From NCBI GenBank assembly GCA_013331805.1, contig DUFS01000003.1, forward strand, positions 1 through 19,667: DNA of 19,667 nucleotides, in the 5' to 3' direction. The stretch is from Candidatus Micrarchaeota archaeon. GTDB lineage: Archaea > Micrarchaeota > Micrarchaeia > Anstonellales > Anstonellaceae. Made by a program: the position numbers and the translations under genes. The first letter of the stretch is position 1; each line of letters starts with the position of its first letter. A model generated the notes under the pieces. The model searched no databases, was not told where the DNA came from, and worked only from the letters and a program-made list of their open reading frames with translations. Positions 2,608 through 19,667 of this stretch are shown piece by piece.

Positions 2608-3687
2608 TTATCGAAATTTTGTCCATATGCGGCCCAATGCCGACCTTGTCACGCTGTAGGCAATCCCTGACACAAACGCAAAAAATATGAACACTCCGTT
2701 CGAGCCGATTATGCGGCGGATGTTTAATAAAGGTAGCGGGAATGGCAGGTCGACGTGAAAGAAGGTTCCTGAGTTGAATGTTGCCTCGAGAATTGCGCCT
2801 TGGGGGGCATTGTTTACCCACACCACTGCCTCATCGCCAAACAATGTTCCGTGCTTTGCAAGGTGATAGGTCTGGTTGCCGATTGCCATGGTTTTTTGCG
2901 AGCTTTCGGAAAGAATGAAGCCGGATATTTCGGATATCTCCTTGTCAGCAATTTCTACCTTGTTTTCCCTGAAGGACCTCACAATTTCGTTGAGGTTGGA
3001 TTGCGAGGAGAAAACACGCTGCATTGGCCTTGCGAAAACAGCCACTGCCTGCCCGCCAGAGTATTCCGTTTTGTCAGTGGTCACGTTGAGCGAATAGGGC
3101 TTCTTGCCTGAAAAGGAGTCGAGAAAGCCGGTGACCGAGACTGACTGGAGCCAGACGTCCTCGGGCTTGCCCCATTGGTAATAGATTGCCGCGTCCTGCC
3201 TTGCCAGATGATAGCCCTCGCTGGAATTCAGATTCACGCTTGCTACCCATGCGCCCTTCACTCCATCAGGCGGAAGCGGGTAGCAGCCTGAGAAAATGCC
3301 GTCCCCGGGCAATGCATCGCAATGCGAAGCAAGCCCGTCGTCATATAACCCCACGCGCACGTCGTCTTCCATGCCTGGCTCGAACGCAGGGAAAAGCAGG
3401 GCGACTGTCGGGTAGTACAAGAGCAGGAAGATCGCAGTCATCTGGAGCTGCATTCCCACAAGCTCGAATGTGAGTTTGTTGTACCTTTCGGTTTGCTCCT
3501 TGTACTCAGGGTCGCGGCCGGATTTGGCGGCATCAAGCATTTTTTTCTGCACTTCGGTCATTTCCTTCTGCAGAGCCTTCATGCGGCCTTTGCCGCCTAT
3601 GTTGTTCTGGATGAAATTGACAATCACCGCGTAGATTGCCGCAACGGCAAGGACGAATAGCCAGAAGTTCTGAAGGTCAAAAAGCAA
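2608..3687 (-). CDS. DUF106 / EMC3-TMCO1-Get1 (Oxa1 superfamily) membrane protein with large extracytoplasmic insertion
   Basis: TM1, cytosolic coiled coil (RMKALQKEMTEVQKKM), TM2, long loop, then LPFPLP..G...FIFFAF TM3; canonical slot between adk and eL34. Likely start TTG 3687 (GGTGTTTTGC-TTG mirrors adk's GGTGTTTTGA-ATG); GTG 3696 is the alternative. Confidence 0.85.
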   Translation of the reverse strand: MLFDLQNFWLFVLAVAAIYAVIVNFIQNNIGGKGRMKALQKEMTEVQKKMLDAAKSGRDPEYKEQTERYNKLTFELVGMQLQMTAIFLLLYYPTVALLFPAFEPGMEDDVRVGLYDDGLASHCDALPGDGIFSGCYPLPPDGVKGAWVASVNLNSSEGYHLARQDAAIYYQWGKPEDVWLQSVSVTGFLDSFSGKKPYSLNVTTDKTEYSGGQAVAVFARPMQRVFSSQSNLNEIVRSFRENKVEIADKEISEISGFILSESSQKTMAIGNQTYHLAKHGTLFGDEAVVWVNNAPQGAILEATFNSGTFFHVDLPFPLPLLNIRRIIGSNGVFIFFAFVSGIAYSVTRSALGRIWTKFR

Positions 3688-3712
3688 GCAAAACACCGCT
3701 GCACAATTGCAG

Positions 3713-5893: not shown

Positions 5894-6817
5894 CTAGTTC
5901 TTGCTGAATTGCTGGTCGTCATTCGGTTCACTTGGAGGCTGCTGCTTAATCTTTGGTGCAGCCGGTTCCTTTGCAGCAAACGTTTCCAGCAATCTTTTGG
6001 ATATTGCGCCTACACCCATTGCCACTGCCCCTACAATCACCCAGGTCTGGGCAACCGGCCATGCCTTTGCCATGGACTCGAAAAGCCCGTTTTGGCCAAG
6101 CTGCGAAAGCCACTTGTCAAGAAACGCGGAAACTGCAACCGTTATTGCCGTGAATTTGGCTGTCTTTACAATGAAATCTATTGCGGCGTTCGCCAAGTCG
6201 CTGGAACCCATATTGGCTTTCTCATTCATCTTTCTTTCCAGCTTTGCCATTTCGTTCAATGCATTGTAGATGACCATAAACAATAGCGGAGCCCATGGAT
6301 TTTGGGATAAGAAGTGCCCGGCATCGCCAATGAGATTCAGGGGGCCTTTCAGCGCCTCTTTGGCAAAATTGAAGCCGTTTTCAATGGTCTCCCAGCACTG
6401 CGCAAGGAAGCCTCTGGGCCTGCTGTCGAACTGTTTTTGGAGGTTTCCCGCATCCTTGGCGGCCTGCTCCACAGCGGGTTTCATGCCCAGGGCAGTCTGC
6501 CTTGCGGTTTCGACTGCTTCTTGAAGAGAGGAATCGTTGAGATTTTTCAAAGAGGAATCCTTGAGTGCTGAAAATTCTTTCAGATTAGCTAAATATTGAT
6601 TTGCGAGGCTTTCAGCATGCGCCTTGGCATTCTGGATTTTCTCAGGAGTTACTTCCTTGTCTGCAATGAATGCGTTTTGCCTGTCTATGGCGGGCTTGAG
6701 GTTCATGAAAAATTTCACTGCCACCGCTGTGCCTGCCAGCACTTTGGCGCTGGTCTTAATCAGCTTGGGGGCTTTTTTCAGCTCGCTTGGGATGTATGGA
6801 ACAGTCTTTTGTGCGAT
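5894..6817 (-). CDS. Hypothetical membrane protein (N-terminal hydrophobic segment, coiled coil, 2-3 C-terminal TM/amphipathic helices)
   Basis: Frame is open from 6835 to 5894. First standard start is GTG 6742 (282 aa), but SD AGGTGA plus a TATA box point to ATC at 6817 (307 aa). No family motif recognised. Confidence 0.75.
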   Translation of the reverse strand: MAQKTVPYIPSELKKAPKLIKTSAKVLAGTAVAVKFFMNLKPAIDRQNAFIADKEVTPEKIQNAKAHAESLANQYLANLKEFSALKDSSLKNLNDSSLQEAVETARQTALGMKPAVEQAAKDAGNLQKQFDSRPRGFLAQCWETIENGFNFAKEALKGPLNLIGDAGHFLSQNPWAPLLFMVIYNALNEMAKLERKMNEKANMGSSDLANAAIDFIVKTAKFTAITVAVSAFLDKWLSQLGQNGLFESMAKAWPVAQTWVIVGAVAMGVGAISKRLLETFAAKEPAAPKIKQQPPSEPNDDQQFSKN

Positions 6818-17496: not shown

Positions 17497-18276
17497 TCAC
17501 AATTTCGCTATTTCCGCAAGCGCGGCTTCCGTGTAGATTGCGAGCCTGCCCGCCTTTGCGCCGGGCGCCAGAAGCTCGGCAGAAAGGTCGCTTACCCTGA
17601 CCGCGTCCACGCCGGGTATGTTCCTTGCTGACCTCAAAAGGGGCGCGTCCTTGGATACTGCGATTATAGCGGACTTGGGATAGACCTTGCCCCCCTTTCT
17701 TGAGCCCACGCCGCTTCTCTTCTTTCCGTTCTCCGCCCTTTGCAGGTCCTTTCTTATTAGCAGGGAAAGGGCCTTGTAAACATCCTTGGTCTTTGCAACC
17801 GACTCGAATGAATTGTCCACAACTATCGGGAGCGCGATCTCCACCTTGTGGCCGCGGGCGGCAACCACTTCCTTGTGCCCAGTCGCAGCAATTGCGGATA
17901 TCAGGGCAACATGGTATTCCTTCCTGTTGAGCTTTTCGAATATGATTTTGTTCACGTGAGGCGGGTGCGCCCTCCTTCCCTTTACTGCGGAGGGGATCCT
18001 TTTCACCTTGCCCAGCCTTCCCTTGGGAAGCACCTCGCGCGGGCGGATGGCTGTGCCCTTGTTCTTGCCTGAGCCAAAGTCTTCCTTTCTTCCCCTGTAT
18101 CGGGCAGACGTTTCCATGCCAGCGCGCGGGTCGTTGCCCTTGGGCTGATAATGTCTGGTCTGGTCTGAAATGGAAGCCCTTGAAATGAGGTCGAGCCTGA
18201 CCTCTGCTGAAAACTGAAGCGGCAGCTCCACCTGGCGGAGCGCCTTGCCTTCAATCGAATATATGTTTGCCTTCAT
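17497..18276 (-). CDS. rpl4: 50S ribosomal protein uL4
   Basis: LP..F...VR.DLI.RA, QP.G.D..AG..TSA, GRRAHPP, N.KE, RNIPGVD, LAPG...GRL. Confidence 0.97.
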   Translation of the reverse strand: MKANIYSIEGKALRQVELPLQFSAEVRLDLISRASISDQTRHYQPKGNDPRAGMETSARYRGRKEDFGSGKNKGTAIRPREVLPKGRLGKVKRIPSAVKGRRAHPPHVNKIIFEKLNRKEYHVALISAIAATGHKEVVAARGHKVEIALPIVVDNSFESVAKTKDVYKALSLLIRKDLQRAENGKKRSGVGSRKGGKVYPKSAIIAVSKDAPLLRSARNIPGVDAVRVSDLSAELLAPGAKAGRLAIYTEAALAEIAKL

Positions 18277-18281
18277 GAGCA

Positions 18282-19229
18282 TCACTGCTTGGACTCCAAT
18301 GAAACGTATTTCAGGTCAGGGACCTTGACTGCCGCATGGGATTTCCTCACCGCGCGCCGCAGCCGTATCAGCCTTTTTGCCGGGCCGCCTAGCGAGCCTT
18401 TGATCAGAAGGAAATCGTTCTTGACATCCCCGTAGTGCGTGAAGCCCCCTTTGGGATTTATTTCCTCGGGCTGCCCCATTTTCAAAATCCTCTTGTTGAT
18501 TTCGGTCCTCTTGTGGTAGCCCATCTGCCCGGGCATGGGCACTGTGTACTGCACGTAACCCGGGTGCCAGGCGCCCAATGAGCCGATGTGCCTTCTTTTC
18601 CCGGTTGCCTTGCGCCTCTGCATCGAGGTCCCGAACCGCTTTACCGTCCCCTGCCAGCCCTTGCCGGTCGTTATCGAAATGGCGTCCAGGAACTCGCCTG
18701 GCTTGAAAACATCTGTTACCTTTATCTCCTTGCCGACAAGCGAGAGCGCATAATCGAGCTTTTCCTCTGTGTCCTTGCCGCCCACTGCAATCTCCATCCT
18801 CTCAGGCGTTTTTTTCCCGAATCCTGTGAGGGCGGGTTGGGCAAAACACAGGGCAAAAACATCATCAACGTCAGAAGCAGAGAATTTCCGGTCGGACTTT
18901 TTTTTCATTCCGATTTTCTTCAGGACTTTTTCATCGCCGCAGAGCATGTCAGAAACGACTTTTCCCGCCTTGTACCCGCGGACCCCGTACACGGCCAGGG
19001 GCGGGCATTCCAGCACCGTTGCCGAGGCGAATACCTCGTTTCCCTTTGAAGGCGACTCGGTGTCGTCTATGTACGTGAGGTGGGTCATGCCTGCCTTGTA
19101 GCCGGCAAACCCGCACAGCTTTTTTTCCGCAAAAGCCTGCCAATGCCTCACAGTGGGCATCTGCGATTCCGCCCTTTTCCTGGGCCGGAATGCGACCGAA
19201 CCCTGCTTGTGGCCTGAGCGCTTTCCCAT
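18282..19229 (-). CDS. rpl3: 50S ribosomal protein uL3
   Basis: GS..FRPRKRA, GYKAGMTH, GKGWQG.VKRFG, R..G.LG.WHP, GQMGYHKRTE.NKRI, GGF.HYG. ATG 19229. Confidence 0.98.
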   Translation of the reverse strand: MGKRSGHKQGSVAFRPRKRAESQMPTVRHWQAFAEKKLCGFAGYKAGMTHLTYIDDTESPSKGNEVFASATVLECPPLAVYGVRGYKAGKVVSDMLCGDEKVLKKIGMKKKSDRKFSASDVDDVFALCFAQPALTGFGKKTPERMEIAVGGKDTEEKLDYALSLVGKEIKVTDVFKPGEFLDAISITTGKGWQGTVKRFGTSMQRRKATGKRRHIGSLGAWHPGYVQYTVPMPGQMGYHKRTEINKRILKMGQPEEINPKGGFTHYGDVKNDFLLIKGSLGGPAKRLIRLRRAVRKSHAAVKVPDLKYVSLESKQ

Positions 19230-19247
19230 TAGAATCCCTAACAATTA

Positions 19248-19418
19248 AGCTTTGGCATCACGGTCACATGGTGCGGCAGGACGCCCGCCGCACAGAGGCG
19301 CACAACCAAAGGTTGCACGCCGCACCTTGTGAGTGCAAAGCTGATTCACCGCGCTTCTTCCCTGTCAAAATCCAAATGCAGGGGTGTCGGTGAGTGTCAT
19401 CTTACTATCAAAGTAAGA
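19248..19418 (-). ncRNA. Candidate structured cis-regulatory 5' leader RNA of the uL3 operon
   Basis: Several helices between the TATA box and the uL3 ATG. Two hairpins are fully paired only on the minus (mRNA) strand, through G-U wobbles. Confidence 0.7.
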
Positions 19419-19443
19419 AGTTCGTCTATATATGAGACAAGTA

Positions 19444-19451
19444 TTTATAAA
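19444..19451 (-). promoter_or_regulatory. TATA box of the ribosomal superoperon
   Basis: TTTATAAA(TACTT) predicts a start near 19420, immediately before the first leader hairpin. The octamer is palindromic, so direction is inferred from context. Confidence 0.7.
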
Positions 19452-19667
19452 GATTGACCCCCTTGCGTGGTAAGCGCTTAAAATTCTTCTGGCAGCGACG
19501 TGAATCAGCCGCCCGAAAAGCGAGATACCGGCAGTTTTCGCAAAAAAAACCTTTTCGAAAAAGAACGCTCTCCGTCGAGCAAAAAATGCATTTTTGCCAA
19601 AAAATAATGGAAAGACATGGGATTATCGTCTGAAGACACGTCGTGGAAAGTCGTTTTTACGCCGAAA

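Follow-up and report, generated by a model that had tools for sequence, protein, structure and literature searches.

A conserved structured leader upstream of uL3 as a putative ribosomal-protein leader RNA family in one order of Candidatus Micrarchaeota

Introduction

What does the structured stretch upstream of the uL3 gene in a Candidatus Micrarchaeota genome represent: a leader RNA through which a ribosomal-protein cluster may control its own expression, or a fold peculiar to one sequence? Few archaeal ribosomal-protein leaders have been described so far. The locus lies in a window of 19,667 nt (the whole stretch of DNA analyzed, which equals one entire contig of a 1.19-Mb, 83-contig assembly that is 91.5% complete), whose minus strand carries a cluster of ~30 genes running from uL3 to SecY and Cmk, with the structured leader at its head. 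A first-pass annotation of this DNA had described a TATA box, two hairpins (i and ii), and a three-way junction holding two GC-rich hairpins, and had proposed a lineage-specific leader RNA that binds a product of the operon such as uL4 or uL3.

Results

The leader heads a large ribosomal-protein cluster

Downstream of the leader lies an archaeal S10-spc cluster in which 26 of 30 genes in a row encode ribosomal proteins. After uL3 the order is uL4, uL23, uL2, uS19, uL22, uS3, uL29, aIF1/SUI1, Rpp29, uS17, uL14, and uL24, followed by eS4, uL5, uS14, uS8, uL6, eL32, eL19, uL18, uS5, uL30, and uL15, and then by an open reading frame without a Pfam match, SecY, adenylate kinase, an EMC3/TMCO1-like gene, eL34, and cytidylate kinase. 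The genes matching SUI1 and RNase_P-MRP_p29 (the RNase P subunit Rpp29) thus sit inside the uL3 cluster. Both the uL3/uL4 and the uL4/uL23 reading frames overlap by 4 nt. The frame between uL15 and SecY (window 5894-6742, minus strand) encodes 282 amino acids and matched nothing in Pfam at E up to 1e-5, with the rest of the ribosomal cluster fully assigned. A 362-amino-acid protein encoded after adenylate kinase (2608-3696, minus strand) gave a weak EMC3/TMCO1-like match (28.6 bits versus a cut-off of 27.1) and may be an archaeal YidC/Oxa1-like insertase next to SecY.

The TATA box (Table 1) and the CTTGTCTCA that follows it are kept in relatives of the genus. As archaeal TATA boxes are centered near −26/−27 relative to the transcription start, this spacing would place the 5' end of the mRNA 3 to 9 nt upstream of P1, the first hairpin of the leader. 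The sequence words of the leader were next to absent from three metatranscriptome runs. The entire stretch from the TATA box to P1 (TTTATAAAUACUUGUCUCAUAUAUAG...; window 19420-19451, minus strand) is kept across the genus and occupies the same place in L002-L019. Within it, the only CTTGTCTC behind a TATA box in the 1.19-Mb genome is that of the leader, and a CTTG 3 bases after a TATA-like box is found at several other places of the genome; the stretch may be a locus-specific promoter or an initially transcribed element. At the other end of the leader, the place of the Shine-Dalgarno-like AGGGAU is taken in relatives by GGU, GGUGA, or GGGG, and no run of at least five T separates the leader element from uL3.

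Table 1. Features of the leader and its surroundings in the window.
Feature	Position	Strand	Remarks
uL4 gene	17497-18285	minus	4-nt overlap with uL3
uL3 gene	18282-19229	minus	first in cluster; Pfam Ribosomal_L3, 3.1e-70; ATG at 19229
Shine-Dalgarno-like AGGGAU	19234-19239	minus	4 nt before ATG, 8 nt after 3' end of P3
Conserved core (covariance-model match)	19339-19427	minus	73.1 bits, E = 1.6e-13; whole window, filters off
P3	19248-19342	minus	closing helix AGCUUUG/CAAAGCU at 19336-19342 / 19248-19254, directly after GAAUC
P3 inner helix UCACA/UGUGA	19328-19332 / 19264-19268	minus	in expanded tip
GC-rich hairpins in P3 tip	19297-19321 (11 bp); 19271-19293 (10 bp)	minus	form three-way junction
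P2	19342-19399	minus	basal helix, internal loop, P2b helix, upper helix
P2 basal helix UGA/UCA	19397-19399 / 19342-19344	minus	3 bp
P2 internal loop	long strand CAC 19394-19396; short strand A 19345	minus	3x1
P2 helix UCACCG/CGGUGA (P2b)	19388-19393 / 19346-19351	minus	covarying
P2 upper helix CCCUG/CAGGG with AAGAAGCG loop	19379-19383 / 19360-19364	minus	subclade-specific
P1 hairpin UCUUAC/GUAAGA	19413-19418 / 19400-19405	minus	base conserved, tip variable
Predicted transcription start zone	19420-19427	minus	from the TATA-to-start spacing rule
TATA box TTTATAAA	19444-19451	minus	33 nt before P1

The leader is predicted to fold stably

Folding positions 19225-19430 of the minus strand with ViennaRNA gave a minimum free energy (MFE) of −76.8 kcal/mol (z = −4.17), with 0 of 200 shuffles equally stable. 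P1, P2, and both GC-rich hairpins are present in this MFE structure, and the centroid contains the three-way junction. For the 198-nt leader we obtained an MFE of −75.9 with the junction included, and the full pairing scheme of the first-pass annotation scored −62.2. The elements listed in that annotation (TATA box, hairpins i and ii, closing helices, and GC-rich hairpins) all lie on the minus strand where it had placed them, and the sequence also bears out its count of 18 nt between the structure and the uL3 ATG. As the plus strand folds nearly as well (z = −3.84), thermodynamics alone cannot choose between the strands, and the choice falls to wobble pairs and covariation. Exactly three of the pairs in the two GC-rich hairpins are wobbles: the 11-bp hairpin has a U.G and a G.U and the 10-bp one a G.U, and they turn into A.C/C.A on the plus strand; a pair-by-pair check agreed with the earlier statement that the three non-Watson-Crick positions are wobble pairs on the uL3 strand.

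The conserved element is the 5' half of the leader

We compared the DNA upstream of uL3 at loci from 30 related genomes and found that the conserved element is the 5' half of the leader, comprising P1 and P2. A block of the form (TATA)...CUUCUUAC-loop-GUAAGAU-GACACUC-NNNN...NNNN-GAAUCA-(helix) recurs in nearly every member of the genus and reaches into several further families of the order. A covariance model seeded with 23 leaders matched 32 of the 37 loci searched, including L005 and L013, which lay outside the first seed and were later recovered by the model. Five loci gave no match: the contig of L020 ends inside uL3, L028 has 171 nt upstream, and L025, L027, and L030 showed nothing upstream of uL3 even with filters off. 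In the window itself the runner-up to the core match scored only 7.4 bits. The model matches, together with three metagenome relatives and one more genome, amount to 36 distinct cores (16 loci, L064-L079, duplicate loci already in the set), each located ahead of uL3 and on its strand. Every matching genome, that of the window included, holds a single match.

The helices of this core covary. Across the 36 sequences, standard pairs occupy 98.3% of 536 pair cells compared to 31.4-54.7% after a 1-3-column shift of the 3' partners, and the covariation score is 0.388 versus 0.136 ± 0.012 in shuffles, none of 500 of which reached 0.388, although both statistics overstate independence since the sequences are related and the alignment is fitted to the model. 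Changes on both sides are seen in 9 of 15 pairs: three of six in P1 (96.7% of cells paired) and five of six in P2b (99.1% paired). One P2 pair, for example, reads AU in 14 sequences, CG in 10, and GC in 10, and another CG in 16, GC in 8, UA in 6, and AU in 5; in three sequences the pair next to the internal loop is U-A in place of C-G, and the outermost U-A of the basal helix is replaced by C-G in one sequence and by U.G in three. Despite the kinship of the sequences, the pattern in P2 is hard to explain except by RNA pairing. The conserved helices further contain 21 G.U/U.G cells, which pair on the uL3 strand only and would be mismatched on the opposite one. Long insertions are confined to the helix tips, namely those of P1 (L005, L019), P2 (L013), and P3 (the window), a pattern that constraint on the helices themselves would produce.

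Beyond the core, P3 is a feature of position without sequence conservation, as indicated by the enrichment of helices directly after GAAUC: a helix of at least 7 bp starting 0-3 nt after this word was present in 14 of 30 leaders versus 5.1 ± 2.1 in shuffled tails (0 of 300), where the shuffles were mononucleotide and the leaders are related. At a threshold of at least 5 bp the same test was uninformative (24 of 30 leaders versus 20.2 expected, with L012, L060, and L085 mis-anchored), and thresholds of 6 and 7 bp were used instead. Between GAAUC and the start codon, the leaders have 29 to 206 nt; the same three loci are mis-anchored in these distances, as they are in the tally of reading-frame lengths discussed below. 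In L021 and L052, a second GAUGAU downstream of GAAUCAUC could pair with the AUCAUC of the P2 basal helix, which hints at alternative pairings in their genus.

The three-way junction is a species-specific expansion

The three-way junction is an expansion of the P3 tip in the species of the window and lies outside the conserved core. The first-pass annotation had built its case on it, and here that case does not hold, since the junction is missing from all 35 other distinct leaders. Of the covariation that it had expected in relatives, we found that of hairpins i and ii (P1 and P2), together with the CAC/A internal loop of P2, and not that of the junction; the invariant loop had been overlooked, and P2 extends hairpin ii by the 3-bp basal helix. 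The nearest relative (79% uL3 identity) carries a single hairpin of 6-7 bp at the place of the junction, and P3 is a short helix in three metagenome relatives with a shared 24-nt core word. A fourth such match (L086) is identical to the window, and as this is the only other copy of the junction, it offers no covariation to judge. A second genomic copy of the GC-rich hairpins was not found by blastn-short (best other match, 16 nt), so the junction is not a repeat. As its three G.U pairs suit the transcribed strand, the junction probably folds in the RNA. Even with the 80-nt insertion, the base of P3 stays 18 nt from the ATG.

An invariant internal loop resembles rRNA C-loops in sequence

Between the basal and the covarying helices of P2 lies a 3x1 internal loop, GA-CAC-U / A-A-UC, with ten near-invariant nucleotides. 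Over 36 sequences, the long strand has G in 36 and A in 36, then C in 35, A in 36, and C in 36 within the loop, and U in 36; the short strand has A in 36, the loop A in 36, and U and C in 36 each. All 36 sequences thus read ACACU*AAU except one, which reads AAACU*AAU. This matches the C-loop sequence pattern N-C-A-(C/A)-U * A-(0-2 nt)-N that we took from the available portions of PMC4551918 and PMC2441787, and, judged by its letters, the leader loop ACACU*A(A)U fits the signature of the C-loop three-dimensional motif.

For the comparison with rRNA, the 23S residue ranges 1424-1440, 2716-2764, and 957-1009 of H. marismortui are those that we take to be H50, H96, and H38, respectively. C-loops are reported at these ranges in the accessible part of PMC2952876, which also describes the C-loop as a site of RNA-protein binding in which an adenine is exposed. 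The consulted sections of PMC4551918 define the C-loop group IL_73276.5 by seven core positions plus a short-strand bulge of 0-2 nt and list ACAAU*AU, GCAAU*AC, and ACACU*AU among the natural variants of 16S h15 accepted by JAR3D, and the H50 C-loop of H. marismortui reads G-CAC-U / A-G-C (PMC2441787, in the part available). Like these rRNA C-loops (h15, H38, H50, and H96; RNA 3D Motif Atlas IL_73276.5), the leader has an asymmetric loop with a C-A-C/A long strand of 3 nt between N-N and U-A closing pairs and 0-2 extra nucleotides on the short strand. This comparison concerns the sequence pattern and not three-dimensional geometry, which in a C-loop comprises crossing non-Watson-Crick pairs of both cytosines with the flanking pairs and an increased helical twist; no single rRNA site equals the leader.

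As the assembly of the window is without an LSU rRNA, we used the LSU rRNAs of relatives. Their C-loops read GAG-CAC-UGA / UCA-AA-CUC in H38, GG-CAA-UG / CA-G-CU in H50, and GC-CUC-UGG / CUA-C-GC in H96, and h15 of the window genome's own SSU reads UUA-CAA-U...(G)A-UAA. The leader thus has the flanking pairs of h15 (A-U, U-A) and the loop of H38 (CAC). GACAC was not found in the LSU rRNAs of the relatives G016 and G030, and no CAC/A loop is common to the LSUs of G016, G030, and G019. A descriptor scan for a 3x1 CAC/A loop with 3+5 flanking pairs found nothing in G016, and only non-homologous chance matches in G030, G019, and the SSU. The first-pass annotation had suggested comparing the junction with the uL3, uL4, and uL24 sites of 23S rRNA; in the SSU of the window genome and the LSUs of relatives, we found no rRNA mimic specific to uL3 or uL4. 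The occurrence of GUGACACU in the SSU gene of the window genome was discarded as a source of mimicry, since it sits in a 154-nt insertion in the 790-loop region and not in conserved rRNA.

The rRNA genes are unusual in themselves. The SSU match in the window genome (L062, G000 C10:1759-4064) spans 2306 nt against a 1478-position model and contains at least one insertion, the 154-nt one in the 790-loop region, and a second partial match (model positions 829-1467) adjoins it at G000 C10:197-1384; introns or a rearranged or duplicated gene may account for this region. In G019, the LSU rRNA gene (L082, C2:337984-342040) measures 4057 nt versus ~2930 nt in G016 and G030 and carries large insertions.

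Two known RNA motifs were considered for the loop and rejected. A kink-turn consensus consists of a 3-nt bulge followed by tandem sheared G.A/A.G pairs, and a kink-turn or L7Ae site is excluded here because the two positions after the CAC bulge are Watson-Crick pairs, U-A and C-G, the latter changing to U-A in three sequences. For a box C/D small RNA, the consensus is RUGAUGA for the C box and CUGA for the D box; the nearest string, AAGAUGA, becomes GAGACGA in L022 and has no CUGA partner.

The leader family is confined to one order among the genomes searched

In the order, matches were found in 32 of 151 sampled genomes, a count made with strict filters that skip weak members such as L022 and L023, which the locus search had found. 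By family, they fall in 26 of 41 genomes of f1, 2 of 3 of f7, 2 of 2 of f10, and 1 of 2 of f12, and sister families with the same gene order had none (0 of 74 in f8 and 0 of 19 in f9). Sampling of the class gave matches in 8 of 151 genomes, all belonging to the same order, and 0 of 116 genomes in families f13-f35. As genomes were sampled, absence here means not found among those searched. The core word pattern occurred on 16 contigs of species-representative genomes, 15 labeled Candidatus Micrarchaeota, Micrarchaeia, or Anstonellaceae and one labeled "uncultured archaeon". Hence, among the genomes searched, the leader family is confined to one order of Candidatus Micrarchaeota, within the DPANN archaea.

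Rfam 15, which should include the published ribosomal leader models, gave no match in the window at gathering scores, and over 19100-19667 at E up to 10 it returned only noise (a 17.3-bit sucC match on the opposite strand and a 13.7-bit STnc210 match). With this result and the strong covariation, the first-pass view of a lineage-specific structured RNA on the uL3 strand was sustained. We likewise found no report of the leader in the main texts of the literature on archaeal ribosomal leaders, DPANN cis-regulatory RNA, and archaeal rpl3 autoregulation. The best reading is that it forms a new family within a known class, the ribosomal-protein leaders.

Among known members of this class, the E. 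coli S10 operon leader is bound by L4 and represses the whole operon, partly by transcription attenuation. Like the Micrarchaeota leader, it heads the homologous gene cluster, but the bacterial cluster starts with S10, and we found no likeness in sequence or structure and no match to the Rfam S10-leader model. At the Methanococcus L1 mRNA site, a ribosomal protein binds by imitation of rRNA. Clear imitation of this kind is also reported for the archaeal S15 and eL15 leaders in the available text of Eckert and Weinberg (2020; PMC7247131); these leaders and the L1 site belong to other genes and have other structures, whereas the rRNA likeness of the Micrarchaeota leader is one of motif type only. 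The nearest counterpart in the same text is an archaeal motif upstream of rplC-rplD-rplW-rplB in Archaeoglobi, with L4 guessed as its ligand, and this motif matches our leader in genomic position and presumed role. It comes, however, from a different phylum, and its covariation is rated borderline where that of our leader is strong, a comparison made by description. The available text covers four archaeal candidates in all, and the words DPANN, Micrarchaeota, and Woesearchaeota are absent from it.

Discussion

With moderate confidence, we propose that one order of Candidatus Micrarchaeota has a new ribosomal-protein leader RNA family, to which this leader belongs, with putative feedback by a protein encoded in the cluster. 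The proposal builds on the position, strand, structure, covariation, loop invariance, single copy, and taxonomic range described above, from which we infer the transcription start, protein binding, ligand identity, and repression. In the mechanism that we envisage, the mRNA for uL3-uL4-uL23-uL2 and the following genes would start a few nucleotides upstream of P1 and fold into adjacent P1, P2, and P3. A ribosomal protein of the cluster, when in excess over rRNA, would bind the invariant loop with its flanking pairs, and the bound P1-P2-P3 block, ~8-35 nt upstream of the Shine-Dalgarno sequence, would hinder 30S loading or destabilize the mRNA. The synthesis of uL3 would be lowered and the effect might spread downstream via the overlapping reading frames. 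As the distance from GAAUC to the start codon is so variable, simple steric occlusion cannot account for all members.

Other readings have to be weighed against this proposal. The structure might act by itself, either as a stability element at the 5' terminus or as a substrate of endonucleolytic leader processing that frees the ribosome-binding site. The closeness of P1 to the presumed 5' end (~3-9 nt) and the variable distance to the start codon speak for this, and so does Methanolobus psychrophilus, where ribosomal-protein operons have long structured 5' untranslated regions and rpsO became more stable and better translated after processing 20-30 nt ahead of its start codon (PMC5499594, in the part available). 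Yet stability or processing alone fails to explain ten invariant nucleotides around a 3x1 loop amid freely covarying neighbors, and we consider this reading rather unlikely, noting that it is compatible with feedback and that the two are not exclusive. That the loop is bound instead by a factor other than a ribosomal protein (aIF1/SUI1, Rpp29, or L7Ae) or by a small molecule seems to us improbable: SUI1 and RNase_P-MRP_p29 do share the cluster of the leader, but the features of a K-turn that L7Ae would call for are absent, a conserved core made of one small internal loop leaves little for a metabolite pocket, and the lack of an Rfam match argues against a riboswitch. Smaller still is the chance that function and ligand binding center on the three-way junction and its pair of GC-rich hairpins. 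These hairpins are highly stable, their three G.U pairs fit the uL3 strand only, and the junction is the centroid fold, but it occurs in none of the other leaders, neither in the nearest relative nor in the three metagenome relatives, and its place is the P3 tip, whose length is free to vary.

It is similarly improbable, to a very high degree, that the conserved block is no leader RNA structure at all and reflects an upstream reading frame beginning at the AUG in GAUGACAC, a DNA operator, or an independent small RNA or repeat. All but one of the 36 sequences have AUG or GUG at the position equivalent to window 19397-19399 (minus strand), and conservation within the genus extends to the interval between the TATA box and P1. 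However, of the frame only the first three codons, M-T-L, are kept, and these coincide with the invariant loop nucleotides; frame lengths range from 8 codons to read-through into uL3, and in one member the triplet is ACG, compensated by a change in the opposing strand of the helix. We therefore rejected an upstream reading frame, given its variable lengths and conservation limited to M-T-L. The compensatory changes and G.U pairs speak for RNA, and the single copy in the genome and the lack of a T run before uL3 argue against the remaining variants. The kept AUG or GUG in GAUGACAC may be a by-product of the invariant loop; alternatively, the AUG may act as a decoy start. A further pairing, of the 5' flank with the last 24 nt before the ATG (P0, an anti-Shine-Dalgarno pairing), was rejected for want of a signal across leaders: own pairs reached −4.8 versus −4.46 kcal/mol for swapped ones, with 152 of 1000 permutations equal and some P1 starts mis-set.

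If the leader acts through feedback by a cluster-encoded ribosomal protein, as we favor, the candidate ligands are uL3, uL4, uL23, and eS4, given as candidates only because none of the organisms' rRNA C-loops equals the leader. By analogy, uL4 is a candidate through the bacterial precedent and the Archaeoglobi motif, and uL3 is one as the product of the first gene of the cluster. The ribosomal site of uL3 is in domain VI, where H96 lies, and uL23 is near H50. The literature on proteins that touch rRNA C-loops offered indirect statements only, such as that uL3 links domains I, II, and VI. For the small subunit, bS16 holds h15, and eS4 and eS24 seem to fill corresponding roles in the eukaryotic 40S, according to the portion of PMC6007441 at hand. 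More tentatively, and with the doubt due to a likeness of sequence pattern, a lone rRNA-type C-loop between two helices at the mRNA 5' end might by itself form the recognition site of a single cluster-encoded protein that contacts a C-loop in the ribosome, with eS4 at SSU h15 (whose flanking pairs it has in common), uL3 at H96, and uL23 at H50 as candidates.

For the reading of single sequences, our results mean that the most striking hairpins of one sequence need not be its conserved part. If the idea of a C-loop operator is true, such an operator would control some 30 genes, SecY included, in a reduced DPANN genome, and it would be without precedent both as a ribosomal-protein feedback element in DPANN archaea and as one based on a C-loop. 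With its clean covariation, its very small invariant core, and its place at the head of the largest ribosomal-protein cluster, the leader offers a compact test of whether a lone C-loop suffices as a protein operator, and of how ribosomal protein and rRNA are balanced in genome-reduced, host-dependent archaea.
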